DNA of 64,000 nt from a virus, in IMG/VR virus record IMGVR_UViG_3300045988_144418, positions 32,001 through 96,000 of that record. One strand, given 5' to 3'. A program made the position numbers and the translations under genes. The stretch's first letter is position 1. Each line of letters starts with the position of its first letter. This document shows positions 26,912 to 63,278 of this stretch, piece after piece. The notes beneath the pieces were generated by a model, which saw only the letters and a list, made by a program, of their open reading frames with translations, did no database searches and was not told where the DNA came from.

Positions 26912-26929
26912 AGAATTCCTGATAAACTT

Positions 26930-26960
26930 CTTGGATATTCAAGAAAATTGACTACCTTTG
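26930..26960 (+). promoter_or_regulatory. early promoter cassette P2
   Basis: CTTGGATATTCAAGAAA ... TACCTTTG, then the conserved leader GTAATCATTAAATCA. Confidence 0.65.
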
Positions 26961-26985
26961 CAGTGTAATCATTAAATCACACGTT

Positions 26986-29788: not shown

Positions 29789-30738
29789 AAGAACTTGTAT
29801 CAACATTGCAGAAGAAGTTCGGCAAGGAGATTGTGGCTGGAAACACTTCACAGGAGGTAACTTTCATATCATCAGGCAGTATGGGTCTTGACTTGGCTCT
29901 GGGTGGTGGATACCCTCTCGGCAGAATAGTGGAACTCAGAGGGTATGAATCCAGTGGCAAGACAACGCTTGCTCTGACAGCTTGTGCAAGCATACAGAAA
30001 CAGACAGGCAAGGCGATTGTCTATGTGGACAGAGAGAACGCCATTGATATGGACTATGTTAAGGCACTGGGTGTGGATATTTCACCACAGATGTTCATTC
30101 TTACACAGGCCGGAACGGCTGAGGAGTGTCTGGAGATTATACGTGAATCAGCGAAGTCTGATGCAGTGGGTGGCATCGTTATGGATTCAGTGGCCGCTAT
30201 GTTTCCACGATGCTATCTGGAAGCGGAGGTGGGGGATGCCAAGATGGGTGTTCTGGCACGTCTGATGTCAGCGTGGCTTCCAGGGATTGTGGGTGACTTG
30301 AAAAGAAACAACATTATCGCTTTATTTATCAATCAGTATCGTGAAAAGATAGGTGTGATGTATGGTTCGCCTAAGACAACCCCAGGAGGAAAGAGTTTGG
30401 GTTTTTACGCAAGTCAGATTCTGGATATTGCCAAGTCAGGTGTTATTGGTGACAAGGGTGAGGAATCAGCCATTCACGTTAAGGTGCGTGTGGAAAAGAA
30501 CAAGGTTGCTCCACCGTTGCGTAAGGCGGAGTTTGATATTCGCTTCGGTGAGGGTGTGGACAGAGCGTCCGAGGTGCTTGACCTTGCCGTTGAATATGGT
30601 GTTGTGGACAAGAAAGGATCGTTCTTCCGTTATAACGGTGACTTAATCGGTCAGGGTTCGGAAAAGGCAAGGACTTTTCTTGCTGACAATCTTGAACTGA
30701 TGCAGGAGATAGAAGCAAAGGTGACTGAAAAGATTTAG
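29776..30738 (+). CDS. recA: RecA recombinase
   Basis: SSGSMGLDLALGGGYPLGRIVELRGYESSGKTTLAL (Walker A), IVMDSVAAM (Walker B), FINQYREKIGVMYGSPKTTPGGKSLGFYAS. Confidence 0.9.
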   Translation: MAGIEELVSTLQKKFGKEIVAGNTSQEVTFISSGSMGLDLALGGGYPLGRIVELRGYESSGKTTLALTACASIQKQTGKAIVYVDRENAIDMDYVKALGVDISPQMFILTQAGTAEECLEIIRESAKSDAVGGIVMDSVAAMFPRCYLEAEVGDAKMGVLARLMSAWLPGIVGDLKRNNIIALFINQYREKIGVMYGSPKTTPGGKSLGFYASQILDIAKSGVIGDKGEESAIHVKVRVEKNKVAPPLRKAEFDIRFGEGVDRASEVLDLAVEYGVVDKKGSFFRYNGDLIGQGSEKARTFLADNLELMQEIEAKVTEKI

Positions 30739-30742: not shown

Positions 30743-32737
30743 ATGAGGCTGGAAACGTTAAGATTAAAGAATTTTCTCTCTTTTAAGGAATTGAACCATA
30801 CATTTCGTAATGGGGCAATCCTTATACAGGGGCGCAACCTTACGGAGGACAGTAAGGAGACAAACGGTGCAGGAAAGTCAACGATGGAAGCAGGAATCTC
30901 CTATGCGTTGATGGCCACACCACTTCGTAAGCAGACACTTGATAGAGATTTGATAAGGTGGGGTGAGGATGAAGCGGAGATTGAACTGACGGTGTTCTGT
31001 CCAGTGCGTAGTCAGCGACTACGTATATTTAGGAGGATACGTGTTAAGGGGTCAGCGACACTGGAACTGTACCTGAATGAACAGTCTGTGCAGTTTGCTT
31101 CCGTGCTGGAGGGTAATAGGTATATTCTGGACTGGATAGCGATAACACCTGAGGACTTGAAGTCCTTTTACATCCTGAACAAGGAGAACTACAAGTCATT
31201 TTTGAGCGCATCCAACACGGACAAGCTCGCTTTGATCAATCGTTTTATGAAAGCGGAGCGACTGGAGGCGGCTGATGATGTCATAAAGGAGCAAAGTGCT
31301 CCTTATGTTGAGAAGCGTGATGCGGCTCAGAGAAAGGTCTTTTCCATTGAAGGCGAATTAAACGCCTATAAGGGTCAGTTGGTCTATGAGCAGTCCCGTA
31401 ACCTTGATGAGGAGCTGGAGCAGCAGGTGGCGACGATTAACGAGCAAATAGAGCAGTATGGGCGGAAGATTCAGGCATGTGATGATGATAGTAGGCGAGT
31501 GGAGAAATCCAGGGGTGAAGTTGAAGCCGATATCACGCAGAGGAGGGAAAGCCTGGACACGGTGAAGCGGTCACTCGAAGCGATGGTCGCCGACAACAGC
31601 CTTGAACGGCAGAAGGAATCCATTAGGCAGGAGCGTCAAGGGTTGGACAATGCCGCCTTTGAAGCCAGAAACTTTCGCAGTGAGGAACATAGACAACTTG
31701 ATGAAACGAACAGAAAGTTGGCTGAACTAAACAAAATGCTTGCAGGTGTGGTCACGTGTCCACACTGTCATCACAGATTCCTACTTAATGATACGGAACG
31801 TTCTGTTGCTGAACTGGAGAATGAGAAAGTTGCTGTAACATACGATGTGGACGCTCACAGTAGTGCAATAGAGGAGGTTAATGCGGTGCTTGATGAACTT
31901 GCGGCTGATCTTTCCACTTATGACTGCAAGGAAAAGGAGCTTGCTGAAGCGATGAACAGGCGTGATGCTGAGATGTCAACATTGCGTAGGCAGGTGGCTG
32001 ACGCCGAGCGTGTTATCTATGCCAAGGAGGCCGTATTGGGTCAGTGCAGTGAAACTGTTAGGCGTAATAACTCCACCATTGAAAGTCTGCGGAAGGACAT
32101 TCAGCAGGAACAGCAAAGGATTGCTGTGCTTATGGAGGATGGTATTCAGACCAAGGTCGAGGATTATAAGGGACTGATAACCCTGACAGAGAAGAAGCTG
32201 GATCGTGCTCAGAAGGAACTTGAAAAGGCGGAGGGTGAGCTTGGAGAACTTCAGCAGTGGGGTCAGCGGTTTAAGGACTTCAGAATGTCACTTGCCTGTG
32301 GACAGTTAAAGGTTATTCAGGATGTGGCCAATCTGTCCCTGGAAAGGCAGAAGTCTGAGCTTCGTGTGTCCATTGACGGCTTTAAGGTGAACGCCAAGGG
32401 TCAGATCAAGAGTGAGATTACGGTGCTTGTTATTAACGGTGAGGGTGAGTATAAGAGTTTCTGGTCGTACAGTGGCGGTGAGCGTGCCAGAGTGGAGATG
32501 GCTATGATTCAGGCCTTTCAGGAAATGCTGAATGCTACCAATCCTTATGGTGGGCTGGATTTTTTGATGATTGATGAAGTGCTGGAGGGGACTGACCCTC
32601 TTGGCTTGAACCTACTTATTGAATCGTTGAAGGATGTTGAAAATCCAGTTTATATCATTAGTCACGTGATGAACATTAAGGCTGGAGTGCCGACCTTGAC
32701 TATCACGAAGGAAAACGGTATAAGCAGAATAGAATGA
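30743..32737 (+). CDS. sbcC: SbcC/Rad50-like ATPase
   Basis: Walker A NGAGKST, long coiled coil with central CPHC zinc hook, ABC signature YSGGERARV, Walker B FLMIDEV. Confidence 0.8.
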   Translation: MRLETLRLKNFLSFKELNHTFRNGAILIQGRNLTEDSKETNGAGKSTMEAGISYALMATPLRKQTLDRDLIRWGEDEAEIELTVFCPVRSQRLRIFRRIRVKGSATLELYLNEQSVQFASVLEGNRYILDWIAITPEDLKSFYILNKENYKSFLSASNTDKLALINRFMKAERLEAADDVIKEQSAPYVEKRDAAQRKVFSIEGELNAYKGQLVYEQSRNLDEELEQQVATINEQIEQYGRKIQACDDDSRRVEKSRGEVEADITQRRESLDTVKRSLEAMVADNSLERQKESIRQERQGLDNAAFEARNFRSEEHRQLDETNRKLAELNKMLAGVVTCPHCHHRFLLNDTERSVAELENEKVAVTYDVDAHSSAIEEVNAVLDELAADLSTYDCKEKELAEAMNRRDAEMSTLRRQVADAERVIYAKEAVLGQCSETVRRNNSTIESLRKDIQQEQQRIAVLMEDGIQTKVEDYKGLITLTEKKLDRAQKELEKAEGELGELQQWGQRFKDFRMSLACGQLKVIQDVANLSLERQKSELRVSIDGFKVNAKGQIKSEITVLVINGEGEYKSFWSYSGGERARVEMAMIQAFQEMLNATNPYGGLDFLMIDEVLEGTDPLGLNLLIESLKDVENPVYIISHVMNIKAGVPTLTITKENGISRIE

Positions 32738-34564: not shown

Positions 34565-34672
34565 ATGGGTCTTTTTGAATTTATAGCTAAATCACGTTCT
34601 GGAGTTTATAAGAATACTTCAGAAAATCGTAGACTCCATCGTGTGGGGCAAAGATATGGTGAGCAGAGGCAA
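34565..34672 (+). repeat. shared N-terminal leader, copy 1 (MGLFEFIAKSRSGVYKNTSENRRLHRVGQRYGEQRQ)
   Basis: About 26 of 36 residues identical to copy 2, with many synonymous nucleotide differences. Confidence 0.8.
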
Positions 34673-35698
34673 CTGGCGGATGAGGGTGAACTGATTCCAG
34701 GAATGCCTAATTTCACCAAGGTGAATCTGAAGAAGTATTTGTCTGACAAGATAAAGAAACAGGTGGATGACTATATTGTTAATGTCTCAACCACTCCAGG
34801 ATGGAATAATCCTGAGCAGGTCTCCCTTATGGTAAAAGTTGTGCAGAAGCACTTCAATGAAGCTTTTGATGATATGACCAAGGCGCAGAGAGCCTACTGG
34901 GTGGAATTGGCAAAGCGGCTTTTGGGGCGAATGGAATCTCTTAATGCAGGTGGCGACAAGGAGGAATCCGTTAAGCCTGAAGAGACACCAAAGCCTACAT
35001 TGAAGGAACGTGTTGACAATTTTGAACAGAAGGAAAAAGCGAAGAATATCTTTGAACAGGCAGCACAGAAGTACGGAATTGAACATGGTAAGCCGATGTC
35101 CATTGATAGAGCTGATCGTAAGCACGCCAACCCGAAATTTCTGACGCTTGTAGATGGAAGTTTTCGTCCATACACTTCAAACTGTCAGACCTGTGTGGTT
35201 GCCTATGAACTTCGTAAGAGGGGTTATGACGTTGAAGCAAAGGGTGTTGGTGTTAAGCCGAAGTCCTATGTAAATAATTTTCAAAGAGAAATGGCCTATG
35301 ATAGTACCTTTGCTTTTGCTGATAAGGATATAGATCTTATTAGGCCGAACTTTACAGGTGAGATTAAGTTCAATACGGATAAGGGTCGTAGGCAGTTTCG
35401 AATGAAAATTTTTGACGCCATAAAAGAGCAGGGAACTTATTTCTTATCTTTTAAGAACAAGGGGCGTCAGAGTGGTCATATTGTGGTGCTTGAACACACG
35501 ACTAATAATTTTTTGTTGATAGATCCACAGTCCAATAGAAGAATTGATCTTAAATCTGACGAATTCATGCAGTATCTTGCTGGAGTGGATGTTACACATA
35601 AAAATAATAGACTATTTAGGGTGAATGACTTGACATTCAAACCTGAGGTATTTTCTGTGATGGAAAAGGCAAATACAGAACCAGATATATATGATTAA
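34565..35698 (+). CDS. leader-bearing payload protein 1: C-terminal papain-like (Cys/His) polymorphic-toxin-like domain
   Basis: N-terminal 36 aa are paralogous to the 35985 gene; C-terminal YTSNCQTCVVAYELRKRGYDV ... RQSGHIVVLEH suggests a Cys-His catalytic pair (inference). Confidence 0.45.
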   Translation: MGLFEFIAKSRSGVYKNTSENRRLHRVGQRYGEQRQLADEGELIPGMPNFTKVNLKKYLSDKIKKQVDDYIVNVSTTPGWNNPEQVSLMVKVVQKHFNEAFDDMTKAQRAYWVELAKRLLGRMESLNAGGDKEESVKPEETPKPTLKERVDNFEQKEKAKNIFEQAAQKYGIEHGKPMSIDRADRKHANPKFLTLVDGSFRPYTSNCQTCVVAYELRKRGYDVEAKGVGVKPKSYVNNFQREMAYDSTFAFADKDIDLIRPNFTGEIKFNTDKGRRQFRMKIFDAIKEQGTYFLSFKNKGRQSGHIVVLEHTTNNFLLIDPQSNRRIDLKSDEFMQYLAGVDVTHKNNRLFRVNDLTFKPEVFSVMEKANTEPDIYD

Positions 35699-35927
35699 TG
35701 AAAAGGATATTTTGAAAATCTGCGAAGCGGCAGGTTGGAAAGGCGGCGAACTGATTTACGGTGGGTTTGCTGACGGCAAGTATTATGTCTCCTATGGAGC
35801 TGAGAGTGACGGTGCAGAACTTGCGTGTGTGGGCGCTCCTATAATTCTTGTCGTGGAGAACGGCAGATGTAGGACAGCTACTGACAAGGAATGGGTTTAT
35901 TTTTATGAAAATTTTGTGAAAGATTAA
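35691..35927 (+). CDS. small ORF coupled to payload 1 (immunity/antidote-like by position)
   Basis: 78 aa; its ATG overlaps the last codons of the upstream gene. Confidence 0.45.
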   Translation: MINEKDILKICEAAGWKGGELIYGGFADGKYYVSYGAESDGAELACVGAPIILVVENGRCRTATDKEWVYFYENFVKD

Positions 35928-35936
35928 GGATTAATC

Positions 35937-35967
35937 CTTGGATATTTCAGAATAATGATTATATTTG
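35937..35967 (+). promoter_or_regulatory. early promoter cassette P3
   Basis: CTTGGATATTTCAGAA ... TATATTTG; preceded by the palindrome GGATTAATCC. Confidence 0.65.
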
Positions 35968-35984
35968 CGTAGTAAAATTCAATT

Positions 35985-36092
35985 ATGGGTTTATTTGAAT
36001 ACATAGTTAAGTCCAGATCAGGTGTCTATAAGGATAATTCTGAAAATAGGCGGCTTCACAGGGCTGGACTGCAATATGGTCAGAAAAAGCAG
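35985..36092 (+). repeat. shared N-terminal leader, copy 2 (MGLFEYIVKSRSGVYKDNSENRRLHRAGLQYGQKKQ)
   Basis: Paralogous to 34565-34672 at the protein level. Confidence 0.8.
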
Positions 36093-36713
36093 CAGGAAAG
36101 CGTTCCTGATGTAAACAAGAAGGATCTTGAACTTGCGGAAGCAAAGGTTAAGAAAATGCTTGTCGTGAAGCAGAACTTTGATGATGTTTCACAGGCGGTG
36201 TGTCAGGAGGTTGGCTGTATTGTTTCTCCTACTAATATTAAAAAGCCCGTAAGAATTGCTCAGAAAATGGCTTCTGATGGTTCTACTATTGATGAGATTA
36301 AGGATGTTATGCGTAACACCTTTGTTGTTAATAGTGACGATGATGTTGGCAAGGTTATAGAAGCCATATCCAAGCATTATAAAGTTGTTAGGGTAAAGTA
36401 TCAAACGCCCGACAGGTTCGCTGGATATAGCGGCAATATTGTCAATGTGGAGCTTCCTAATGATGAAATTGGTGAAATGCAGGTGAATACGCCACAAATG
36501 ATATTTGGCAAGGAAGTTGAACGTGATGCCAGAATGATTTTGGGTGATGGCCTATGGGAACGATTGAAAGCCAATGCAGGAAATCTTATTCCAGGACTTG
36601 GTCATAGGATGTATGAGGTGCTTCGGGATGATTCCATTGACGATGAAAGGCTTGATATTGTCGAACGCAATAGTAGAATTTATTATGATAGAATTAGAAA
36701 GATTTCGCTATGA
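35985..36713 (+). CDS. leader-bearing payload protein 2: RelA/SpoT-homologue nucleotidyl/pyrophosphotransferase (small alarmone synthetase or toxSAS-like)
   Basis: Synthetase-fold pattern by eye: IKKPVRIAQKM, IKDVMRNTFVV, AGYSGNIVNVEL, IGEMQVNTPQM (compare GY.s.H and E.Q.RT..Q); driven by promoter cassette P3. Confidence 0.55.
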   Translation: MGLFEYIVKSRSGVYKDNSENRRLHRAGLQYGQKKQQESVPDVNKKDLELAEAKVKKMLVVKQNFDDVSQAVCQEVGCIVSPTNIKKPVRIAQKMASDGSTIDEIKDVMRNTFVVNSDDDVGKVIEAISKHYKVVRVKYQTPDRFAGYSGNIVNVELPNDEIGEMQVNTPQMIFGKEVERDARMILGDGLWERLKANAGNLIPGLGHRMYEVLRDDSIDDERLDIVERNSRIYYDRIRKISL

Positions 36714-36958
36714 GAACTGTAACTAACAAGGAACTGGGGGAGTTGCTCCGCTCCAATGAAATGGTCTATCTTCTGGACGACACTGATGAAATCGCATGGG
36801 GATTTCTCGGTGATGGAAAGAACCGTAGAAGAGTGGTGAGCAAGGCAAAGGGCAGGGAACCTGTTGAGCACAATCCCAAGCAGCAGAACTCCAATAGTAT
36901 GATTCGTGCCTATCTGAATAAGGATGTGATGACCAAGGAGGAGTTTGAAAACTATTAG
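36710..36958 (+). CDS. small ORF coupled to the RelA/SpoT-like gene (antitoxin/immunity-like by position)
   Basis: 82 aa; ATGA stop/start overlap. Confidence 0.45.
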   Translation: MRTVTNKELGELLRSNEMVYLLDDTDEIAWGFLGDGKNRRRVVSKAKGREPVEHNPKQQNSNSMIRAYLNKDVMTKEEFENY

Positions 36959-36965
36959 AATTTTC

Positions 36966-36996
36966 CTTGGAAATTCAAGAACAATGACTATATTTG
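36966..36996 (+). promoter_or_regulatory. early promoter cassette P4
   Basis: CTTGGAAATTCAAGAA ... TATATTTG. Confidence 0.65.
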
Positions 36997-37009
36997 CACT
37001 GTGAAAATT

Positions 37010-37027
37010 AAAAATGATTTTGTTATG
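37010..37027 (+). promoter_or_regulatory. start-codon-abutting motif (AAAAATGATTTTGTTATG)
   Basis: Recurrent motif ending in the ATG; here it lies downstream of cassette P4. Confidence 0.35.
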
Positions 37028-37477
37028 ATTAAGATTGTCACTAAATCTCAGGACAGATTTCGTCAGGCCGTTGAAATAGCTGTCCAGGCACATCAGGGTC
37101 AGGTTGACCGAAATGGTGTTCCGTATATCTGTCATTCTATTGCCGTTGCTCAAAAGTGCTCATTCTATACAGCCAAGTGTGTGGCTATGCTTCACGATGT
37201 GCTGGAGGACACGGAGGTTACGGCACAGGATCTATTTAAGATGGGTGTTGAGGAATATATCATTGAATGTGTGGAAAAATTGACGCACGATCCAAAGGTT
37301 CCATATCTGGATTATATTCAAAGCATAATTGACACCAGAGATGCTAATATCATATCGGTTAAGTACGCTGATCTATGTGATAATCTCGATCCTACGAGGG
37401 GTGGAATGAATGAAAAGAAAGTGCCTCTGTATCGCAAGGCCAGAAGAATGATGGAGGAAGCATTATGTTTCATATAG
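37025..37477 (+). CDS. small alarmone hydrolase (SpoT/RelA-type HD domain)
   Basis: AVEIAVQAHQGQVDRNGVPYICHSIAVAQ ... AMLHDVLEDTEVT is the (p)ppGpp-hydrolase HD signature; has its own promoter cassette P4. Confidence 0.75.
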   Translation: MIKIVTKSQDRFRQAVEIAVQAHQGQVDRNGVPYICHSIAVAQKCSFYTAKCVAMLHDVLEDTEVTAQDLFKMGVEEYIIECVEKLTHDPKVPYLDYIQSIIDTRDANIISVKYADLCDNLDPTRGGMNEKKVPLYRKARRMMEEALCFI

Positions 37478-47674: not shown

Positions 47675-48061
47675 ATGAAGATAGTGTATAACAAAATAAT
47701 TCCCTTTAAGGGGTATCTCTGCATTAATCTGTTCGAGGTGCTCTTTGTGCGTGGTACGAGGGTGAAAAAGGAACATCGAATCACCGCCAAGGTGGTGAAT
47801 CATGAGGGGATTCACACGGCACAGATGAGGGAGATGGGTTACATTTTCTTTTATCTGTGGTACTTCGTGGAATACTGTATCATCAGGCTCTTTCATCAGA
47901 AGCAGGGTTGTGCCTATCGGGACGTTTCCTTTGAGGAGGAAGCCCATCGTCACGAGAATGACTATCAATATCTGCAGAACAGACGTCACTATGCTTGGTT
48001 CAAGTACCTCAGGGCGAGAAGCAACCATTTGCATACTGGACACGGCTACTGTCAGAGGTGA
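47675..48061 (+). CDS. small HExxHxxQ zinc-metallopeptidase-like protein
   Basis: NHEGIHTAQ motif; -7 box TATATTTG at 47660-47667 ends only 8 nt before the ATG. Confidence 0.45.
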   Translation: MKIVYNKIIPFKGYLCINLFEVLFVRGTRVKKEHRITAKVVNHEGIHTAQMREMGYIFFYLWYFVEYCIIRLFHQKQGCAYRDVSFEEEAHRHENDYQYLQNRRHYAWFKYLRARSNHLHTGHGYCQR

Positions 48062-48079
48062 TATATGTATGTAAATCAG

Positions 48080-48101
48080 GGACGCCCAGACGTGGGCGTC
48101 C
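48080..48101 (+). terminator. GC-rich hairpin (terminator candidate, weak U-tract)
   Basis: ggacgccca-gacg-tgggcgtcc. Confidence 0.45.
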
Positions 48102-48137
48102 TCCAAAATGTTTAATAATTATTAAATCTAATTCATT

Positions 48138-49052
48138 ATGGCAAAACCAGATTGGATAACATTAAGCAAGACGTCAGGTACAGGCAATGATACTGTTACC
48201 GTGACGGCTGCGAAGAACACGGGCACCTCTGCAAGGAGCGGCTCAATCACTGTCAAGTCAGGATCTCTATCAAAGGTGGTGACGATAAGTCAAGAGGCGC
48301 AGACCCAGAATTCTCTCGTGTGGCCTACAAGTGGGCTGGCGTTTCCTCCGATTCAGAATTATAGTTCTAACAATTCTACTCACCTGGATGTGGATCTTAA
48401 ATACTTTGACGGTTCACTCACCACACTGGACGCTACAATCTTTATGGTGAATGGTGAGGAAGAATCCTCCAGCCGAGTTCTATCTGACTTCGGTCTATCC
48501 TTGACAGGGTCTATCATAAAGACAAACGGTGACACCACGACAGTCAGGTTCCAGGTGACAGTCACTGATTCCACCAAGCTGGAGGCCGAGCTGGACACTT
48601 CCCATTATGGAGAGGGAACCGAGACGGAGCCATATTATGGAGACATGAGTTTTTACATCACTGGATTGAAAGGTGAGGACGGTGTGGGTGTTGCAAGCGA
48701 AACGTATGCGCTTACAATCTACAAGGTAGTGCCACAAAGCCCTGTTGGTAAAATTACATTATCGCCTGAAACTGTGGAGATTGATCTTGAGGGTAATGCT
48801 TCCGTTACCGTAACTTATTCCAACATCGTTCCTTCCTCCATCCAAATAGACACAAGTGAAGTCCCTGACAGCATTACAATTGCCCCTCAGAACCTGCCTG
48901 TCGGACAGGAAATAAGTAGTGGAACACTTGATCTCTTTATTACCGTTAGTTCAGAAGCGACAACGGATTTCAACCACGAATTTAACGTTTCAGGTCGTGA
49001 TTCTGAAGGTCAGACAATCACGGCAACAGGTACAATCTATATTAGACCGTAG
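48138..49052 (+). CDS. BACON-domain surface/adhesion protein, currently expressed variant (constant N-terminus + C-terminal cassette A)
   Basis: N-terminal PDWITLSKTSGTGNDTVTVTAAKNTGTSARSGSITV is BACON-like; the 55-bp IR-L occupies codons 35-53; a terminator hairpin follows the stop. Confidence 0.7.
   Translation: MAKPDWITLSKTSGTGNDTVTVTAAKNTGTSARSGSITVKSGSLSKVVTISQEAQTQNSLVWPTSGLAFPPIQNYSSNNSTHLDVDLKYFDGSLTTLDATIFMVNGEEESSSRVLSDFGLSLTGSIIKTNGDTTTVRFQVTVTDSTKLEAELDTSHYGEGTETEPYYGDMSFYITGLKGEDGVGVASETYALTIYKVVPQSPVGKITLSPETVEIDLEGNASVTVTYSNIVPSSIQIDTSEVPDSITIAPQNLPVGQEISSGTLDLFITVSSEATTDFNHEFNVSGRDSEGQTITATGTIYIRP
48241..48295. repeat. inverted repeat left arm (IR-L, 55 bp)
   Basis: gctcaatcactgtcaagtcaggatctctatcaaaggtggtgacgataagtcaaga is the exact reverse complement of 50107-50161. 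Confidence 0.95.
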
Positions 49053-49079
49053 GTTTTGTGAATTTAATTGCAAATTCAA

Positions 49080-49112
49080 GGGAACGTCCTATTGGGCGTT
49101 CCCTAATTATTT
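49080..49112 (+). terminator. terminator hairpin after cassette A
   Basis: gggaacg(t)cc-tatt-gg(g)cgttccc followed by taattattt. Confidence 0.6.
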
Positions 49113-49151
49113 AGAAGATTGTAGGATACATATAAATTCTGACAATCTTCT
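49113..49151 (-). terminator. hairpin immediately after the cassette B stop codon
   Basis: agaagattgt ... acaatcttct (10-bp stem, 19-nt loop); no clear U-tract on the minus strand. Confidence 0.35.
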
Positions 49152-50126
49152 TTATGATATATCAAGGAACTCATCATCACAATATAAGGTGATAATTATA
49201 TCGTCCTTAATAGATACATAACCATTTAAATCTAACAAAGATGGATTTTGCATCTCAAGCACGACAGACGAATCAAATCCAGGAACTTCTGTTCCGAAAT
49301 AAGTCTCTGACAAATCAAAGGTAGGCAAATTTAATAAACTTAAATTACCTGTTTTGATCTCTGAAATTGACACAACACCGATTTGGGTAGCTTCTATGGC
49401 AGCAAAATCAGTAACAAAGGCTAGATTATTTAGTTTGAAAACTGAGAACGGCATTGGAATGCACCTATATACATCCATCCTAAGTTCTGGTACTGATCCA
49501 CCTGCATCTACACCTGTTACGTAAGGAAATATAGGTAAGTAACTTGTATTGTTATCCCTGTTTATTAACCAAACAAGACCGAACTTCTCACTGGTAAATT
49601 GTGATGGCATTCTGGAGAGGAAAATCGAATCTGATCTAATGACTGCGTGGTATCTGGTTTGATATTCTTCAACAATACAATCAGATTCAAGTATAATTGA
49701 AGAATCATGAGAAGTAACGACATTCTCAACTTTGGTAAAGAGATCTGCTTGAACTTTTGCAATTTCACATAACAAGAAGTTCTCATTGTTATAAAAGTCT
49801 GTATGTGCAGACGTTTCATTATTATAAACAGTATCAGGATTAGTGGATCCGTTTAATATATGAACATATAAGAACTGATTATATTTCCAGTCAACCTGCA
49901 ACTTGTTGTATAATTCGGTAACATTAGACTTTGGAATATCAATGTATATGTATTGTGAATCCATTGATACGATTGTTCCCAAAGATAAACCATCCGTTAC
50001 AGTCAAGCCATTGGTATTAATATATACTTCTGTATCATGATTCGTTACATCTAAATTTTGATCAGCATTTGATATTGCAATCTTCATTGCAACAACGGTA
50101 GAAGCATCTTGACTTATCGTCACCAC
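49152..50126 (-). CDS. silent alternative C-terminal cassette B for the BACON-domain protein (no start codon or promoter of its own)
   Basis: The only long minus-strand ORF not shadowing a + gene. The frame stays open through IR-R up to a TAA at 50175-50177 with no upstream ATG. The IR-encoded residues SITVKSGSLSKVVTISQ are in frame. The region looks AT-richer than its flanks. Confidence 0.6.
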   Translation of the reverse strand: MVTISQDASTVVAMKIAISNADQNLDVTNHDTEVYINTNGLTVTDGLSLGTIVSMDSQYIYIDIPKSNVTELYNKLQVDWKYNQFLYVHILNGSTNPDTVYNNETSAHTDFYNNENFLLCEIAKVQADLFTKVENVVTSHDSSIILESDCIVEEYQTRYHAVIRSDSIFLSRMPSQFTSEKFGLVWLINRDNNTSYLPIFPYVTGVDAGGSVPELRMDVYRCIPMPFSVFKLNNLAFVTDFAAIEATQIGVVSISEIKTGNLSLLNLPTFDLSETYFGTEVPGFDSSVVLEMQNPSLLDLNGYVSIKDDIIITLYCDDEFLDIS

Positions 50127-50161
50127 CTTTGATAGAGATCCTGACTTGACAGTGATTGAGC
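50107..50161. repeat. inverted repeat right arm (IR-R, 55 bp)
   Basis: Exact reverse complement of 48241-48295 (checked base by base). Confidence 0.95.
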
Positions 50162-50196
50162 ATTTGACGGAACGTTATTTGTAAACATATATTAAA

Positions 50197-50655
50197 ATGA
50201 CAGTTATGACAGAGGAAAACATTATCATTAGACGGTTGAATGAGTTATTAGGCTCACACTTCACCGTGATGACCTACGCTTGGGGCTGTCACTGGAACGT
50301 GACAGGAATGGGATTTAAGGCGGCTCATGACTTTTTGAAGGATCTTTATGAGGCCGAGCAGGAGCGTGTGGACGCCACGGCTGAAAGAATTCGTGCTCTG
50401 GGCGGCATGGCTTCAGCATCCATAGAGGAGATGGAGCGTAGAACGCTTATATCCGCCGACGGTGATACCGTGAACAGTCATGACATGGCTTCCGTGTGGA
50501 GCAGCCTTGCTCGTCTATGGGGCAGTCTCATCAACATTATAGCTGATGTTCATGGGGTCACGGCTGAGGCTGACATCGCGACACGGTCATTTCTGGAGAA
50601 TATGACAGAGGAGATGCAGAAGGAACTATGGATGATCACGGCAAATCTTAAATAG
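50197..50655 (+). CDS. dps: Dps-family ferritin-like DNA-protection protein
   Basis: CHWNVTGMGFKAAHDFLKDLYEAEQERVDATAERIRALGG matches the Dps ferroxidase-site helices. Confidence 0.8.
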   Translation: MTVMTEENIIIRRLNELLGSHFTVMTYAWGCHWNVTGMGFKAAHDFLKDLYEAEQERVDATAERIRALGGMASASIEEMERRTLISADGDTVNSHDMASVWSSLARLWGSLINIIADVHGVTAEADIATRSFLENMTEEMQKELWMITANLK

Positions 50656-52463: not shown

Positions 52464-52929
52464 TATGGATCCACGTGTGGAAGCCGTTCGGCAGTCCATA
52501 GACAAGAGCTCCATTCCTGAGGAGATGGCTTCCTGCATGGTTATGGCCACAGCCATGGAGACAGTGATGAATGACGTCATGGAACGCATCAGGATGAAAT
52601 ACAAGGCCGTGGGTCTGGATGTTAGGCGCAATGACGTGCTCAAGGGGCTGAAAGGCTACTGTCAGGCCGTGAAGACGGCTGGATACTGGTTTGATAGAGA
52701 GGTTGAGCCGAGAAACGTTGAGTGTACCTTTGGAACATACGGAACGGCCTCCTCCTATGACGGCTTTCGCGCAAGATGCGGTGAGGTGGCAGAGCTGATG
52801 TCCATGATTGTGCAGGCAAGCAAGGATCCCTCCGCAATGGAGAAAATTAGAGATGCAGCGAGAGAGGCCGCTCGTGACCGAGGAGTTACCCTTGAGGACT
52901 GGACAAGACTGCATCTAAGGACGGATTAA
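52456..52929 (+). CDS. hypothetical protein
   Basis: ATG 52456 (or 52465) within track ORF 52399..52929; overlaps the upstream stop. Confidence 0.5.
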   Translation: MNSMDPRVEAVRQSIDKSSIPEEMASCMVMATAMETVMNDVMERIRMKYKAVGLDVRRNDVLKGLKGYCQAVKTAGYWFDREVEPRNVECTFGTYGTASSYDGFRARCGEVAELMSMIVQASKDPSAMEKIRDAAREAARDRGVTLEDWTRLHLRTD

Positions 52930-53501
52930 TGACTAACATTATAAAAAGGAGAATTATGAACTTTTACGAGGCAGCGATAAGGACGGTCTGCACGGCCTAT
53001 GACATAACACCGGAGGTGTTGAGGGGGGATCGCAGAGATGAGCGAATAGTTGAGGCACGAAAGTGGTACTGCCTACTCACGACGCCACGACCCCTGGAGA
53101 GGTCAGGCAGATACATCAATCGTGATCACGCCACCGTTCTGCACCACAGAAGAGAGATGCGTGAGGCCATAGGCATCTATCCTCTCCATGAGGAAAGATG
53201 GCGTGTGATGAAGCGCCTATTCAACAGCATTCTTGTGGAGGAACGAATGAATGGGTGTCACGTGGGTGTGAAGGAATACAGGGCTGAATGGAGAAACTAT
53301 CAGGATCTACTGTCAGCCGCTGAGAATGCGAGACATAGACTGGAGGAGCTGTCCACGGCCGTCACGGGGGAGCCGTGCGTGGTGTGTGAGAACGGTGACG
53401 GTGGATTCCATGTGGTGAAAGTGAGGGACAGGATTGGCAGACCGCTGCCGTTGGTCTATATGCTGAACGTCATAAGGAGGAGAGATGGACAACCAATATA
53501 A
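52929..53501 (+). CDS. DnaA C-terminal-domain-like helix-turn-helix DNA-binding protein
   Basis: RRDERIVEARKWYCLLTTPRPLERSGRYINRDHATVLHHRREM resembles the DnaA domain IV pattern (R......AR...myL......S...IG..f.RDHtTV.h). Confidence 0.5.
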   Translation: MTNIIKRRIMNFYEAAIRTVCTAYDITPEVLRGDRRDERIVEARKWYCLLTTPRPLERSGRYINRDHATVLHHRREMREAIGIYPLHEERWRVMKRLFNSILVEERMNGCHVGVKEYRAEWRNYQDLLSAAENARHRLEELSTAVTGEPCVVCENGDGGFHVVKVRDRIGRPLPLVYMLNVIRRRDGQPI

Positions 53502-53513: not shown

Positions 53514-53900
53514 ATGAATATTGATGAATGTATTAAGATTCTGGATGCCGTAAGGCAGCAGAAGCCTGTTGAGTATCGCTTTAGGGGTGATGATGTCTGG
53601 AAGGACTTGCTGATGGAGGATTCTCGGATGGATAACGTGACCCTGAACTTCCACAAGAAGGAATACAGGTTGAAGAAGCCCATCAGGTATAGATCCTACA
53701 CCGGAGTGGACGAGTTTGTGAATGAGGCCTGTAATCATGAGTGTATGCTTATGAGAAGGAGAGATACAGGGGTAGTTCTTGTTCCATCCACAATCACCAA
53801 TGACGGTGTTCAGTGCGGTGATTATTACATCAATTATTCCGAGCTTCTGGATAGGGTGGTGTGGTATGACGATGGAACGCCTGTGGGGATGAAGATATAG
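53514..53900 (+). CDS. hypothetical protein
   Basis: 128-aa ORF; last gene before the long non-coding region. Confidence 0.55.
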   Translation: MNIDECIKILDAVRQQKPVEYRFRGDDVWKDLLMEDSRMDNVTLNFHKKEYRLKKPIRYRSYTGVDEFVNEACNHECMLMRRRDTGVVLVPSTITNDGVQCGDYYINYSELLDRVVWYDDGTPVGMKI

Positions 53901-53970
53901 AGTAGAGACAGGTGCATAATTAAATCTTATCACCCTCGATAAGCAGAACTTATAGTTGATCATAATTGAT

Positions 53971-54069
53971 AGACACACAGAGAATCCGGAGATTGGTCTT
54001 GACCCTGTGTGTCTTTTCGTGTGAACTCCGTAGGATGTTCACACATGGAACGTTCGAACAGAACGTTCC
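53971..54069 (+). terminator. three tandem hairpins (terminator cluster or structured element)
   Basis: agacacacag/ctgtgtgtct (53971-54014, then TTTT); gtgtgaac/gttcacac (54019-54044); ggaacgttc-gaaca-gaacgttcc (54047-54069). Confidence 0.55.
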
Positions 54070-54170
54070 CCAACTCCCTGATATTCAGAACACTTCACTA
54101 TTTCTATGATAAGCATTTCTTATAATGGGTGATAATCCTTCCTTATATGGAGCACTTGAATACAGGCATT

Positions 54171-54339
54171 GAGGGTGTGGAGGTGAATGACATCAAGGGA
54201 GAGGGTTCAGTCAGGAGACTCGGTTTAGGAGGGTATGGAATGGGTTTAGGAGGAGAGGGTCGGTTGGGGTGTATTGATTCAGGTTCAGTATGGGGTATCT
54301 TGAGGTCGGTTTGGATTGAGAGGTTCTGGGTATTTAGAG
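54171..54339 (+). repeat. C-depleted G/T-rich tract with degenerate repeats
   Basis: By my count 12 C in 169 nt; ggtttaggagg at 54222 and 54243; tcggtt(t/g)gg at about 54220, 54260 and 54306; many GGG/GGGG runs. Confidence 0.7.
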
Positions 54340-54463
54340 CCGTGCGGAACCATCCGCTCCCAAATCCCTTTCGCTCACGTCGTGGCTGTTTTCGGGCGAA
54401 ATTAGCCGATGACAGGGTGCTTCCGACATGGATGCACCACCTATGAGCGGCCAGTTCCCTAAA

Positions 54464-54669
54464 CTCCGGGATTTTCGGTACTTAACGGAAGCTCATCGGG
54501 ATAGGCGGATGCCGAGATTTTGTGAAAAACTGGGTGTGAAAATGCCGTGAAAAATATAATTCGCTGATAATGAGTGACTGATTTCAAATGTTAAGTGGTT
54601 GATACCAAAATCCCGGAGAGTATTAAAACGAAATTAAGCAAAAATCCCGAAATTACGTAAAATGTTAAG
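54464..54669. repeat. iteron-like short repeats
   Basis: ctccgggatttt (54464-54475) is inverted relative to aaaatcccggag (54607-54618); aaaatcccga (54641-54650); GTGAAAA x3 at 54522, 54536, 54547; aaatgttaag x2 at 54586 and 54660. Confidence 0.6.
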
Positions 54670-54760
54670 CAGTTTTTGAAGTCCGTTCCTATAACTCCAC
54701 TCAGGTATCCCGAGTTATGATGATTAAAATTGTAAGTAATAGAATTTTCGTGAAAACTTC

Positions 54761-54791
54761 ATTGGATATTCAAGAAAATACACCAACTTTG
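54761..54791 (+). promoter_or_regulatory. early promoter cassette P6
   Basis: ATTGGATATTCAAGAAA ... CAACTTTG, then the leader GTAATCGTTAAAATCA. Confidence 0.65.
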
Positions 54792-54819
54792 CACCGTAAT
54801 CGTTAAAATCATTAAAATT

Positions 54820-55083
54820 ATGGATGCACAGAAACAACTTCAGGAGCGTATCAGATGTTCCGAAGCTTTGATTAAGGGGCTGGATTTGCAGATTAGTCAA
54901 AAAATCAACGAACTTCATAATCTGCAGAGCCGTATGGTAAGGAATAGGGATAGGCTTGCTGCCATCAGGGACGCAAGGGGCGGCATCTACGATAAGTGGT
55001 ATCGGCATCATAGGGAGGACAATTTTGCATACGACACACAGTGGGAAATAGAGAAAGGGCTTATGTTGTTAGAGGGGGTATGA
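54820..55083 (+). CDS. hypothetical early protein (coiled coil)
   Basis: 87-aa ORF behind promoter cassette P6. Confidence 0.6.
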   Translation: MDAQKQLQERIRCSEALIKGLDLQISQKINELHNLQSRMVRNRDRLAAIRDARGGIYDKWYRHHREDNFAYDTQWEIEKGLMLLEGV

Positions 55084-55136
55084 GGGTGAATTCAAGGTTG
55101 TGGAGGGGTAATAACTTTTGCTTATAATTAAAACTT

Positions 55137-55319
55137 ATGGATATGACACAGAAGGAACGAAACGCACACATCGTACGAAATGCGGTGGCCACGTCGGACA
55201 CCGTCACAATACGTCTCGGGGATGGAACCGAGCTCTGCTTCTATCGCAGCCAAGCCTTGGCTGCACGGCAGTTCAGGGAGGAACTCGGCAGAATAGTGGA
55301 ACAGTATCTATTGGCATGA
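55137..55319 (+). CDS. hypothetical small protein
   Basis: 60-aa ATG ORF; the overlapping 55118 ORF in another frame is less likely. Confidence 0.4.
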   Translation: MDMTQKERNAHIVRNAVATSDTVTIRLGDGTELCFYRSQALAARQFREELGRIVEQYLLA

Positions 55320-55341
55320 CAAACCTATAATCAGAATCTAT

Positions 55342-55506
55342 ATGAACACACCTACATGGAGAATCTCCTGGTTGGAGAAAGGGTCAGAGGTCGTTCACAC
55401 GACACGCCTCACAAGACAGTGCAGTCGTATTGAAGCGGAGCGGTACATAAAGAGAATAAGGCCGGACATTGTGTGGTGTGAGGTCGTTCTCGAGGGTATA
55501 AGGTAG
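55342..55506 (+). CDS. hypothetical small protein (54 aa, below the ORF-track cutoff)
   Basis: Translated by hand: MNTPTWRISWLEKGSEVVHTTRLTRQCSRIEAERYIKRIRPDIVWCEVVLEGIR; fills a gap in the co-directional gene string. Confidence 0.3.
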   Translation: MNTPTWRISWLEKGSEVVHTTRLTRQCSRIEAERYIKRIRPDIVWCEVVLEGIR

Positions 55507-55560
55507 AACTGATGAGTGGAGAGCCTTGCTTCTCCATTTATCATATATGATAAATGAAAA

Positions 55561-55794
55561 ATGAACGATAGGAAATATTGCTGTGCAAGTTGCAGACACT
55601 GGGAGCCAGGAGATTCGTGGAGAACCACTCCCATAGGTATGGAACGCAGGGTTCCAACGGCTATTATGGCACAGGGCACGTGTCATGTCACGGATAGACC
55701 CTATGGACGAATGAACTATATGAAGCCCTGTAAGAGATTCGAATGCAGACTATATGAAAATCTAGGATTAATTTCACGAAATTTTCAGAAATAG
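55561..55794 (+). CDS. hypothetical Cys-rich small protein
   Basis: 77 aa with CCASC and scattered Cys/His. Confidence 0.45.
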   Translation: MNDRKYCCASCRHWEPGDSWRTTPIGMERRVPTAIMAQGTCHVTDRPYGRMNYMKPCKRFECRLYENLGLISRNFQK

Positions 55795-55795
55795 T

Positions 55796-55827
55796 CTTGG
55801 AAGATTCAAGAAATAGCCCCAACTTTG
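55796..55827 (+). promoter_or_regulatory. early promoter cassette P7
   Basis: CTTGGAAGATTCAAGAAA ... CAACTTTG. Confidence 0.6.
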
Positions 55828-55875
55828 TATCGTTGGTTCAGTTGAGCGCTGCCAACAAGGGTTAAAGTTTAATAT

Positions 55876-55893
55876 CTAAATCATTTCGTTATG
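55876..55893 (+). promoter_or_regulatory. start-codon-abutting motif (CTAAATCATTTCGTTATG)
   Basis: Recurrent motif ending in the ATG. Confidence 0.3.
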
Positions 55894-57035: not shown

Positions 57036-57042
57036 AGAAGTT

Positions 57043-57072
57043 CCTGGGAAATCCAGGACTCCCTTATATTTG
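57043..57072 (+). promoter_or_regulatory. early promoter cassette P9 (variant dyad)
   Basis: CCTGGGAAATCCAGGA ... TATATTTG, then the leader GTAATCATTAATTCA; both arms are changed yet still complementary (CCTGG/CCAGG). Confidence 0.6.
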
Positions 57073-57099
57073 CATCGTAATCATTAATTCATACACGTT

Positions 57100-57999
57100 A
57101 TGTCACATTTCAACAGCATCACATCGTTTCAGAATCTCAAGGATCAGTACAGAATCCTTGCTATGGCCAACCACCCTGACAGGGGCGGTGACACAGCCAC
57201 TATGCAGGAGATCAATGCCGAATACAGCCGCCTGTACGCCATCTGGGTGAACAGGATAGAGGACGCAAACGTTCGCCCCACGATGACGGCCGAGCAGTCC
57301 ATCCACCACTTCTACACGCAGAACGGATGGGAGGGTTCCAACTATGACTCCAGTCTCAGCACCAAGGACATCGCCGCTCTGGTTCGTGAATACTGCAAGC
57401 AGAACTGGAATCAGTGGAAGTTCTCTATCAGATGCCACTTTGCCTCCATGTGCAGCGAAATTAGGGTATATCTTCAGGGTGGCCCGATAGCTTCAGGTCT
57501 GGTCGGGGAGCAGGGTGAATGCTGTCAGGAGTTCGGCTACCAGACGAGATACCAATACAGAAGTGAGCGTGACGACAGGGTGGCACCTGAGGCGGAGATT
57601 GTGATGCAGGACGTCATCGCCTACCTTAAATCCTTCAACTATTACGACAGTGACAGTATGATCGACTACTTCGACACGAACTTCTATCTGTCTGAATACA
57701 TCGCTGGCAGCAAGGAATGGAAGCACGTCCAGAGACAGGCTCGCATCACAGCCCCACAACCTACACCGAGTGAGGAACAGGCCTCAGCCCCAGGCCTTGG
57801 CGAGGGTGTGGACATCATCACCTATTCTGACAGGGCTCTGGCCGTGGTGGGGGATACCAAGCCGCTGAGAGCACGCCTGAAGGAGCTCAAGGGTCGCTTC
57901 AATCCAGGCCTGACGGTGGATGGTGTTAGGAGGGCTGGATGGGTGTTCAGCGCAAAGACCTACACGGTTGACACCCTGAGACAGGCGATATTCGCCTGA
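57100..57999 (+). CDS. J-domain (DnaJ-like) protein
   Basis: N-terminal LKDQYRILAMANHPDRGGDTATMQEINAEYSRLY carries the HPD tripeptide; behind promoter cassette P9. Confidence 0.8.
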   Translation: MSHFNSITSFQNLKDQYRILAMANHPDRGGDTATMQEINAEYSRLYAIWVNRIEDANVRPTMTAEQSIHHFYTQNGWEGSNYDSSLSTKDIAALVREYCKQNWNQWKFSIRCHFASMCSEIRVYLQGGPIASGLVGEQGECCQEFGYQTRYQYRSERDDRVAPEAEIVMQDVIAYLKSFNYYDSDSMIDYFDTNFYLSEYIAGSKEWKHVQRQARITAPQPTPSEEQASAPGLGEGVDIITYSDRALAVVGDTKPLRARLKELKGRFNPGLTVDGVRRAGWVFSAKTYTVDTLRQAIFA

Positions 58000-58092: not shown

Positions 58093-58434
58093 ATGACGTT
58101 TTTACAAATCAACATAGGCACGAGAAAGGTGGCGTCACTGGAATGCGGCAAGGCCGTGTCTGATTCAGTCAAGGGCTTCTTCCGCATTCCAGTGACGGAA
58201 TTAAGGGCGTGCGTTCTGGACGAGCGCAGCGGCTTCCTATCTCTGAGGATGCGACATGAGACGCTTAACCTCCACTCCACGGGCTGGAAATGGGAAGATC
58301 TTCTGGACGCATTCGTCGCGACCACTGAAGCCCTGATGAGCCACTATGCCGACAGACCTGACATGGAGAGCATGATAACCATAACCGAGACAGGAAACAT
58401 CACAACACTTGTAAATCTATATTACGATGAATAG
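58093..58434 (+). CDS. hypothetical protein
   Basis: 113-aa ORF overlapping the start of the methylase gene. Confidence 0.5.
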   Translation: MTFLQINIGTRKVASLECGKAVSDSVKGFFRIPVTELRACVLDERSGFLSLRMRHETLNLHSTGWKWEDLLDAFVATTEALMSHYADRPDMESMITITETGNITTLVNLYYDE

Positions 58435-62486: not shown

Positions 62487-62843
62487 ATGGCAAACAGATC
62501 AAAGCAAAGCCCGAAGGGCATTTTATTCATCAAGTGGCATCACAAAAATTCCACTTGCATCTGTTACGGCACACTCGCAGGTCTTGTCAGTGAGGTGTTC
62601 AACTATACGCTTGAATGCGGTCATTCCTGGGATCCTTCCATTTCTATGGAACCAAAGAGCCTCAAGTCGCTCGTAAGAGCCCTAAACAACTCCTATGACG
62701 TTCTTAACAGGTACTCTACTTATGTGGAGGAAAGCAACTTTCAGGAGTTCCTTCAGGCTTATGGCAGTGACTTTGATAGAGGAATTCTTACCGCAAAGGC
62801 GGCTATTGACCCTATGTTTCACGATAGAATTGAAGTAAGATAA
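62487..62843 (+). CDS. hypothetical early protein
   Basis: 118-aa ORF behind promoter cassette P10. Confidence 0.6.
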   Translation: MANRSKQSPKGILFIKWHHKNSTCICYGTLAGLVSEVFNYTLECGHSWDPSISMEPKSLKSLVRALNNSYDVLNRYSTYVEESNFQEFLQAYGSDFDRGILTAKAAIDPMFHDRIEVR

Positions 62844-63217: not shown

Positions 63218-63219
63218 TC

Positions 63220-63250
63220 CTTGGATATTTCAAAAATATGACTACCTTTG
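63220..63250 (+). promoter_or_regulatory. early promoter cassette P11
   Basis: CTTGGATATTTCAAAAA ... TACCTTTG, then the leader GTTAATCATTAAATCA; preceded by GGATTAATCC. Confidence 0.65.
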
Positions 63251-63278
63251 TGGCAGTTAATCATTAAATCATCTACAT

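Follow-up and report, generated by a model that had tools for sequence, protein, structure and literature searches.

Can a phage exchange the C-terminal part of one of its proteins by turning round a piece of its own genome, and can it do so with no invertase of its own? This question is raised by a locus at positions 48241-50161 of a 64,000-nucleotide stretch of viral DNA, referred to here as the window (positions 32,001 to 96,000 of IMG/VR record IMGVR_UViG_3300045988_144418). There a first-pass annotation, made from the sequence and its translations, had noticed a 1.9-kb segment bounded by inverted repeats that lie within the coding sequence of a BACON-domain protein. From the comparison of related genomes set out below, we consider it very probable that the locus is a real, natural DNA-inversion switch. 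That flips are brought about by homologous recombination is, as a claim by itself, somewhat better than an even proposition, and the best explanation taken as a whole, namely a switch in a phage of the type described below that is flipped by homologous recombination, appears reasonably likely.

Anatomy of the putative invertible segment

The perfect 55-bp inverted repeat reported in the first-pass annotation was recovered. The right arm (IR-R, 50107-50161) is the exact reverse complement of the left arm (IR-L, 48241-48295) over 55 nt, and the match lengthens to 58 nt at 98% identity; neither arm is assigned to a strand. No second perfect inverted repeat of at least 20 nt was present across the 64-kb window, and in 20 shuffles the longest reached 14-16 nt. 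IR-L occupies, as had been claimed, codons 35-53 of the plus-strand gene 48138-49052 (304 amino acids, aa) at the end of the BACON module, where it encodes SITVKSGSLSKVVTISQ and spans the last third of the BACON domain (Pfam, residues 3-53). IR-R was correctly placed in the same reading frame at the 5' end of the minus-strand open reading frame (ORF) 49152-50126, and supplies the final 17 codons of the BACON module ahead of the minus-strand cassette. It was also right that this is the only long minus-strand ORF that is not a shadow: all others in the window of at least 200 aa overlap a longer plus-strand ORF.

The constant part of the gene consists of the start codon and 52 codons (48138-48293, plus strand) and holds one BACON domain according to Pfam (PF13004, residues 3-53, E 2.8e-14, 53.3 bits versus a gathering cut-off of 25). 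Situated beyond the invertible segment or just at the edge of it, this part is retained in either orientation and is 92-100% identical in relatives regardless of the cassette joined to it. It is followed by cassette A (48294-49052, plus strand, 252 codons and a stop), the copy read as currently expressed, while cassette B (49152-50108, minus strand, 318 codons and a stop) is intact, currently silent and indeed AT-richer as had been supposed, with a GC content of 0.34 versus 0.46 in cassette A and 0.49 in the flanks. The two hairpins described between the convergent cassettes proved to be stable (-43.6 kcal/mol, z -8.1). One (49079-49104, plus strand) ends the plus-strand cassette and scores as a terminator; the other (49113-49151, minus strand) is an inverted repeat with a fold z of -8.1 directly past the stop codon of cassette B, and would serve as the terminator with B flipped into the expression site. 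Upstream of the gene stands a fixed plus-strand leader (48062-48137), read from the sequence, which holds a further hairpin (48080-48106) and is conserved among relatives, even in one (L094) that has lost the switch gene. Beyond IR-R, the fixed outer flank (50162-50196, plus strand) lies outside the flip, is conserved in relatives and carries a promoter-like site, TTGACG-18-TATATT at 50164-50193, ahead of the next gene, which encodes a Dps/ferritin protein (50197-50655).

We propose that this arrangement would work as follows. Behind a fixed start codon and 52-codon BACON module comes the 1.9-kb segment with its two convergent, terminator-separated C-terminal cassettes, and because the same 17 BACON codons precede each cassette, their two copies form the inverted repeat. 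Recombination from arm to arm would flip the segment. In the orientation found here the gene would be read as BACON+A and the unjoined cassette B would be left with neither start codon nor promoter; after a flip the product would be BACON+B. On their own coding strands both cassettes have a GC skew near zero versus a mean of +0.22 ± 0.08 for the genes of the genome (z -2.8 and -2.4), which fits long-term flipping. Along the plus strand of the window the skew is strongly positive and falls to about zero over the invertible segment (48001-50000). Other skewless stretches occur at 57100-57999, 58093-58434 and 62487-62843 and may be recent acquisitions.

In another reading, cassette B would be a gene in its own right, its translation starting at GTG 50126 with no inversion, and the repeat would be merely a shared motif. 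Gene callers do start ORF 49152-50126 at that GTG and annotate a protein of 324 aa, equivalents of which are annotated in relatives. The ORF itself speaks against this. As the first-pass annotation stated, the minus-strand frame is closed upstream by a TAA at 50175-50177 and holds no in-frame ATG, only GTG codons. No promoter of the sigma-70 type or with a TAnnTTTG element was found upstream on the minus strand, the space being taken up by the 5' end of the ferritin gene, and the product would open with a six-residue stump of a BACON strand. Moreover, relatives carry the full fusion of BACON module and cassette B, and elsewhere B-like sequence forms the C-terminal domain of long BACON proteins. 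We regard independent expression of cassette B as very improbable.

Both orientations in related phages

The predicted product of an inversion (52 aa plus cassette B, 370 aa) was built and searched against 5.8 billion proteins. This fusion, which the first-pass annotation had predicted for an inverted segment, exists as a full-length called gene in related phages. BACON+B fusions covering 100% of the query were recovered with 91% (P0001, 371 aa), 87% (P0003, representing 21 member sequences) and 86% identity (P0004); all three carry BACON Pfam domains and lie on contigs of 57-105 kb. In the fusion genomes cassette A or a third cassette, C, is found inverted and promoterless behind an inverted repeat of 42-62 bp. 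Thus L003 (the same phage as L098) has BACON+B in the expressed position and A inverted behind a repeat of 42-45 nt, and L004 has BACON+B expressed and cassette C inverted behind a perfect repeat of 62 nt.

A wider sample of loci was drawn from IMG/VR and metagenomes. Written as expressed/silent, the pair is A/B in the window and, conversely, B/A in L098 and L140; it is A/C' in L097 and L138, C'/A in L142, B/C in L004 and C/A' in L096. The arms are perfect, with lengths of 42-62 bp, in L098, L004, L096, L097, L138 and L142. From these arrangements it follows that every cassette family is found both joined to the constant part and silent in inverted form. The shared architecture, an in-frame 17-codon repeat, convergent cassettes and two terminators, occurs in at least six strains and four cassette pairings. 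Between the window and L098 the difference is a clean inversion of the whole segment, which aligns in reverse at about 93-94% identity between flanks of 94% and 89% identity.

The closest pair is formed by L142 (ENA OLHG01000031.1) and L097 (IMGVR_UViG_3300045988_135457). The two match at 100.000% identity along 2,230 bp of flanking sequence and show zero mismatches in a further 1,680 bp of it, and between these flanks a 1.8-kb segment is exactly inverted, with the breakpoints inside the 51-bp arms. Judged by sequence, this is one strain assembled in both orientations. Only four single-nucleotide polymorphisms (SNPs) were found in the 5.6 kb compared, all of them in cassette A (L142 3317-3774), and three of the four are non-synonymous (I/V, D/A, A/T); they may reflect selection on the binding cassette or allele exchange in it. 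Silent cassettes were intact ORFs in all five cases examined. The ratio of non-synonymous to synonymous substitution (dN/dS) between cassette copies was 0.27-0.49, alike for those on and off (B against expressed copies, 0.43-0.49), which fits periodic expression of the silent copies.

Three further candidates for mixed orientation were dismissed. P0024 looked like a flipped form of L096 (contigs of 106,558 and 106,557 bp) and was ruled out by differing A' sequences. Short contigs bounded by the repeat were considered as a sign of mixed orientation, and L136 (2.2 kb) turned out to be unbounded, ending in the silent cassette; the contig of L143 starts within the repeat, yet it represents a single-cassette form and hence is no such sign.

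Could the repeat or the differences in orientation have arisen during assembly? The name of the window contig suggests SPAdes, with a largest k-mer that we take to be 55. The length of the 55-bp repeat would then probably equal the largest k-mer of the assembler, in which case one contig by itself can be an uncertain guide to orientation. However, the same architecture is present in independent ENA scaffolds, in MEGAHIT k141 contigs, in JGI/IMG-VR and in other ENA sets, and strain-specific SNPs are copied in both arms. Because the architecture recurs independently, including in MEGAHIT k141 contigs (L004) whose k exceeds the repeat, we consider the chance of an artefact negligible.

Concerted evolution of the repeat arms

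To follow the repeat itself, both arms were aligned from seven assemblies representing six strains (L097 and L142 being one strain). Seven sites are polymorphic and all are synonymous third positions (TCA/TCC, GGA/GGC, CTA/CTT, GTG/GTT, ACG/ACA, ATA/ATC, CAA/CAG). The sites vary between genomes, yet within each of the seven assemblies the left arm equals the right arm at all seven. Such concordance indicates gene conversion between the arms, since neither selection on the protein nor crossover at a fixed site yields it. The arms also differ in length from strain to strain (42, 48, 51, 52, 55 and 62 bp), and the inner edge has shifted into the cassettes, leaving mosaic junctions: the first residues of cassette B are DASTV (window), EAFTV (L098) or EGQTL (L004), in each case matching the partner cassette. 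A core of 18-19 nt is nearly invariant across strains.

The first-pass annotation had suggested that the long, perfect repeats point to continuing recombination, possibly through a phage RecA, and concerted evolution of the arms fits this. By this sequence signature, homologous recombination demonstrably acts on the inverted arms, and its crossover outcome would be inversion. The proposed mechanism therefore probably includes no dedicated invertase: general homologous recombination, by RecA/SbcCD-type proteins of the phage or by host machinery, would act on arms of 42-62 bp, and the same recombination would keep the arms identical through gene conversion.

Recombination genes and the search for a recombinase

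The window lies in ENA contig BRIT16-1 scaffold_130 (101,564 bp; window position = contig position - 27,683). Pfam was run on plus-strand ORFs of at least 90 aa in window positions 1-38 kb and on selected ORFs near the switch, precomputed Pfam assignments covered contig positions 65.8-100.9 kb, and the remaining ~28 kb were read through the relative IMGVR_UViG_3300045988_135457, whose checked proteins are 99-100% identical. No Resolvase- or Phage_integrase-type match was found in the window or, through the relative, in the remainder of the ~101.5-kb genome, which upholds the earlier statement that the segment has no linked serine or tyrosine invertase. Comparison of locus-adjacent proteins with PHROGs likewise gave no recombinase, one further gene matching only a replication-initiator PHROG.

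The genome does encode general recombination proteins. A RecA (29776-30738, plus strand; RecA E 1.6e-78, RecA_C E 2.4e-20) is the candidate catalyst of recombination between the arms. It is flanked by genes on the same strand for an SbcD/Mre11-like phosphoesterase (28763-29788; Metallophos E 1.4e-08) and an SbcC/Rad50-like ATPase of the SMC type (30743-32737; SMC_N E 1e-06, below the curated cut-off), both of which may take part in the switch. Two UvrD-like helicases are encoded as well. Homology-driven inversion is favoured because the arms show gene conversion and because the phage carries RecA with SbcCD-like flanking genes.

The same anatomy might instead be flipped by a site-specific recombinase acting in trans, either a serine or tyrosine invertase of a Bacteroidales-type host or an unrecognised phage protein. 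It would use a short core within CTCTATCAAAGGTGGTGAC, and homologous recombination would merely homogenise the longer arms. This is what precedent would suggest. The established cassette switches of phages (Mu G, P1 C, e14 P, p15B) all use an invertase, as do most programmed inversions that alter genes in bacteria, and Bacteroidales own globally acting invertases of the Mpi and Tsr families (PMC9881135). In addition, the arm core is nearly invariant across strains, and for roughly half of the ORFs of the phage no family match was obtained. On the other hand, the genome-wide Pfam search and the PHROGs comparison at the locus returned no recombinase domain, and conservation of the core needs no recombinase, as it is coding sequence under amino-acid constraint. 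Crossover at a fixed site neither needs nor produces arms of variable length and edges with concerted synonymous sites, and dependence on a host invertase would be unusual for a strictly lytic phage. We therefore consider a recombinase in trans unlikely, though it is the most serious of the alternatives.

Relation to known inversion systems

The first-pass annotation had likened the locus to the Mu G and P1 C segments. The logic is indeed shared, in that coding-sequence inverted repeats join a constant N-terminus to alternative C-termini here too. The N-terminal part stays outside the segment here as it does in Mu G, P1 C, e14 P and p15B Min, which are served by the serine invertases Gin, Cin, Pin and Min, and as in these systems there are two convergent C-terminal cassettes per segment, of which only the joined one would be expressed. 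Unlike in those systems, no gin/cin/pin-type gene is adjacent or was detected genome-wide, no chaperone (U/U') gene is present, each cassette being a single ORF followed by a hairpin, and the gene encodes a BACON/Ig-like multi-domain protein in the replication region rather than a fibre in the tail module. The phage, too, would be unlike those that carry these systems, as it appears to be virulent and to infect Bacteroidota. No gix/cix-like 26-bp site was recognised when the sequences were compared by eye. A resemblance of TATCAAA...GATAA in the arm to hix half-sites, also seen by eye, was judged unconvincing, with a spacing 4 bp short. The Bacteroides Mpi consensus ARACGTWCGT was compared with ACGTTCCGT in the outer flank of IR-R and rejected, since there is one extra base and the motif is present on one side only and outside the repeat.

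In mechanism the closest analogue is the inversion at the sap locus of Campylobacter fetus, which encodes its S-layer protein and reportedly inverts in a largely RecA-dependent manner (Dworkin and Blaser 1997; Ray et al. 2000). In both systems expressed and silent cassettes point in opposite directions and have a conserved 5' coding region in common (17 codons here; in sap it encodes the anchoring N-terminus), and in both a homology-based inversion would swap the variable C-terminal part with no dedicated invertase (here, none by profile searches). The gene conversion and variable end-points of the arms here are likewise of the RecA/homology type. The geometry differs, since in C. fetus a promoter-bearing element flips between flanking cassettes, whereas here the promoter and N-terminus would be fixed and the cassettes flip. 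The homology in sap extends over hundreds of bp, against 42-62 bp here, and here the switch is part of a phage genome with its own recA. Recombination in phage T4 reportedly requires roughly 50 bp of homology (Singer et al. 1982), and the arms here are of that size range. The study of C. fetus sap by Ray et al. (2000) is cited in PMC5634654.

Two further classes of system share features with the locus. Gut Bacteroidales have programmed inversions that alter genes, and intragenic invertons (PMC9881135, which catalogues gene-altering inversions in bacteria; bioRxiv 10.1101/2023.03.11.532203). These also use repeats in coding sequence to alter the C-terminus of surface-type proteins, but belong to bacterial chromosomes and prophages and are generally invertase-linked, in contrast to the probably virulent phage considered here. 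A BACON-protein switch of a virulent phage was found in neither of these two papers. Shufflons of the R64 type, as here, select alternative C-termini of one adhesin-like protein by inversion, but they consist of several segments with 19-bp sfx sites and lie next to rci, the gene of the Rci tyrosine recombinase, compared with one segment, two arms and no rci here. Sixteen putative viral invertons are reported in PMC13501310, and the single example described there is of a different kind. A full-text literature search returned no description of a system like the present one.

The switched protein and its cassettes

BACON proteins of phages include crAssphage gp64 and others, and where BACON domains of gut phages are single and not in tandem, they have been described from the replicative or the head region of the genome (PMC6949934); the present protein agrees with these in its N-terminal BACON module and its location in a replicative region. 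No inversion or recombination terms were found in that paper. Structure prediction for both C-termini, as the first-pass annotation had proposed, succeeded for one of them. Cassette A was modelled by AlphaFold2 with a mean predicted local distance difference test score (pLDDT) of 82 and is predicted to form two beta-sandwich (Ig-like) domains after the BACON domain; its Foldseek matches were Ig-like proteins of a generic kind, BACON proteins from phages, and tail or 'Ig' proteins. The AlphaFold model of BACON+B was not confident (pLDDT 32) and hence no fold was assigned to B. Comparison of cassettes A, B and C with PHROGs and with PDB sequences gave nothing useful, the sole PDB match, a ferritin at E 0.08, being noise.

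An exhaustive profile search placed B-like domains in the C-terminal ~320 residues of proteins of 925-1018 aa (P0058, P0059), which start with MAKPSWITL and contain BACON domains. By this match cassette B resembles the distal tip of a long, fibre-like protein from another phage, in agreement with its lower GC content. Dozens of homologues of the switched protein have a common N-terminus (MAKPDWITLSK...) followed by unrelated C-termini, which is, at the level of sequence, the pattern of a conserved anchor with exchangeable binding modules. No signal peptide was seen by eye, the N-terminus (MAKPDWITLSK…) having no hydrophobic stretch, and there were no tail-fibre or PHROG matches at the switch gene. 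Whether the product is exposed on the virion, as an adhesin, decoration protein or fibre, appears to us evenly balanced; its distal domains would set the binding specificity. A second protein, of 210 aa (MAKAAWLTLS...), with a weak, sub-threshold BACON match is encoded among structural genes of the relative IMGVR_UViG_3300045988_135457 (L015 6637-7269) and hints at a possible role of BACON N-termini in attaching proteins to the virion.

The phage and the evolution of the locus

The genome of ~101.5 kb probably belongs to a virulent, myovirus-like gut phage with a host among the Bacteroidota; it is considered virulent because no integrase was found. Its structural and packaging genes include those for a tail tube initiator, baseplate J and an intein-containing terminase, with a portal and an SU10-like capsid protein in relatives. 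For replication and repair it encodes Pol III alpha, a DnaB-like helicase, an NAD ligase and the UvrD-like, RecA and SbcCD-like proteins, and besides these GroEL, Dps/ferritin and an ECF-type sigma factor. The switch gene stands between the GroEL/DUF4494 genes and the Dps and sigma factor genes. Megablast with the locus and tblastn with the protein gave no match among 50,697 phage records. Nearest among cultured phages, by the capsid protein only, are B. thetaiotaomicron myoviruses (DAC19 and others) at 35% identity and SPO1-like phages.

The TAnnTTTG -7 element marks Bacteroides promoters. A promoter-like motif of ~40 nt (TCCTTGGATATT..N..TGACTAynTTTGCA) carries this element and recurs before several genes, at 18007-18040, 26928-26961, 35935-35968, 36964-36997, 57040-57073 and 63218-63251 and in weaker form at 47660; none of these sites is directly before the switch gene. 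The motif suggests that the host is one of the Bacteroidota and that these genes have a class of promoter in common.

The switch is restricted to a close clade, in which a neighbouring 481-aa protein is 91-99% identical; in about 35 farther relatives (60-66% identical) no such repeat was present in the ~6 kb downstream that were examined. The window and L097 have left flanks of 95% identity and different silent cassettes, and we conclude from this that cassettes are exchanged horizontally as well as flipped. In the proposed mechanism, cassettes would thus additionally be traded between phage strains.

Several relatives depart from the two-cassette form. In L094 (7900-8200), a close relative, the loss of the BACON gene begins at the start codon and reaches to the last ~15 codons of cassette A; no silent cassette is present. 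L143 (1-1100) has a lone cassette A with the ferritin gene directly after it and is 100% identical downstream of A. The more distant L095 (7899-9470) has three tandem plus-strand genes with BACON N-termini and no inverted repeat, an alternative in which all are expressed. In L137 (7800-8030) and L138 (1-1945) a C5 DNA methyltransferase gene (motif FIDLFCGIGGF) is inserted precisely at the outer edge of IR-R, before the ferritin gene.

Such diversity is what would be expected if there were no working switch and the locus were a by-product of modular C-terminal domain exchange between co-infecting phages, with rare accidental flips and no adaptive alternation. An exchange hotspot would account for close relatives that differ in the silent cassette (B in the window, C' in L097), for the loss of the gene in L094, the single cassette of L143 and the tandem genes of L095, and for cassettes unlike in GC content. 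It would not be expected to produce the same architecture in four pairings and at least six strains, nor one strain in both orientations with identical flanks; likewise, the silent cassettes are all intact with dN/dS like that of expressed ones, and the arms are kept perfect. We consider a mere by-product improbable.

Other genes and features of the window

Just upstream of the switch gene, 47675-48061 encodes a 128-aa protein with an HExxH-like motif (NHEGIH) that matches PHROG 15610 'protease' (E 2e-37). The canonical promoter closest to the switch gene belongs to this gene, and the two may be transcribed together. Elsewhere in the window, the large terminase subunit (12350-14452) has a Hint intein domain (Hom_end_hint, E 9e-15) ahead of its nuclease domain. 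A thymidine hypermodification module at 17535-21560 comprises a dUTPase, two 5-hmdU DNA kinase genes (HMUD2, HMUDK_hel, E 4e-74) and a thymidylate-synthase-like gene, by which the phage DNA is probably hypermodified. Three genes in 34565-37477 are possible host-takeover or alarmone genes and encode a glutamine-deamidase toxin-like domain (34565-35698), a RelA/SpoT-like protein just below the Pfam cut-off (35985-36713) and an HD domain (37001-37477). Downstream of a DnaA_C-like gene (52929-53501) lies an ORF-poor stretch of ~2 kb (53900-55890) with only short scattered repeats, possibly an origin or a regulatory region. Searches of the window for tRNA genes and Rfam families were negative.

Weighing the proposed explanation

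A number of observations weigh against the explanation of the locus as a switch flipped by homologous recombination. Gene conversion proves homologous recombination at the arms, not that flips arise by it. The evidence for both orientations comes from assemblies, the L142/L097 strain being the nearest proxy for coexistence in one population; if the repeat does equal the largest k-mer, the printed orientation of the window contig would rest on read pairs. Many phage proteins have no family assignment, and one of them could be an unrecognised recombinase. A scan of 185,579 bacterial species genomes with the repeat core gave no match and hence no clue to a host or prophage. No named family beyond BACON supports the function of the switched protein. 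Promoter and motif scans found no canonical promoter directly upstream of 48138, where the nearest Bacteroidota-type -7 motif (TAnnTTTG, at 47660) precedes the gene 47675-48061 and a repeat search with the sequence upstream of 48138 returned a single copy only. Finally, foreign origin can also explain the near-zero skew of the cassettes and the low GC content of B. The position we take is that general recombination maintains the repeats, as the arm sequences indicate, and probably drives the flips.

Implications

The textbook cases in which a phage binding protein is switched by inversion come from temperate phages of enterobacteria, which encode an invertase themselves. Here the same logic appears in an uncultured gut phage of an abundant type, with a host apparently among the Bacteroidota and with no detectable invertase. 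As a tentative view, which we hold with less confidence than the points above, the locus may represent invertase-free programmed phase variation in a virulent phage. An in-frame repeat of ~50 bp would be barely sufficient for flipping at a useful rate by the phage's own RecA-type recombination during replication, and the distal domains of a BACON-anchored virion adhesin or fibre, and hence specificity for hosts or glycans (mucus), would alternate. Other phages would supply new cassettes, one such source being the tips of their fibre-like BACON proteins of ~1000 aa.

Loci of this kind will get mis-annotated as a short 'hypothetical' minus-strand gene and may yield assembly breaks and false strain differences in virome studies. 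If the explanation is true, ~50 bp of homology together with a phage RecA can suffice for a programmed switch, and the single BACON-domain proteins of phage replication regions would be modular carriers of exchangeable binding domains. Lytic gut phages could then hedge their binding specificity by DNA inversion.

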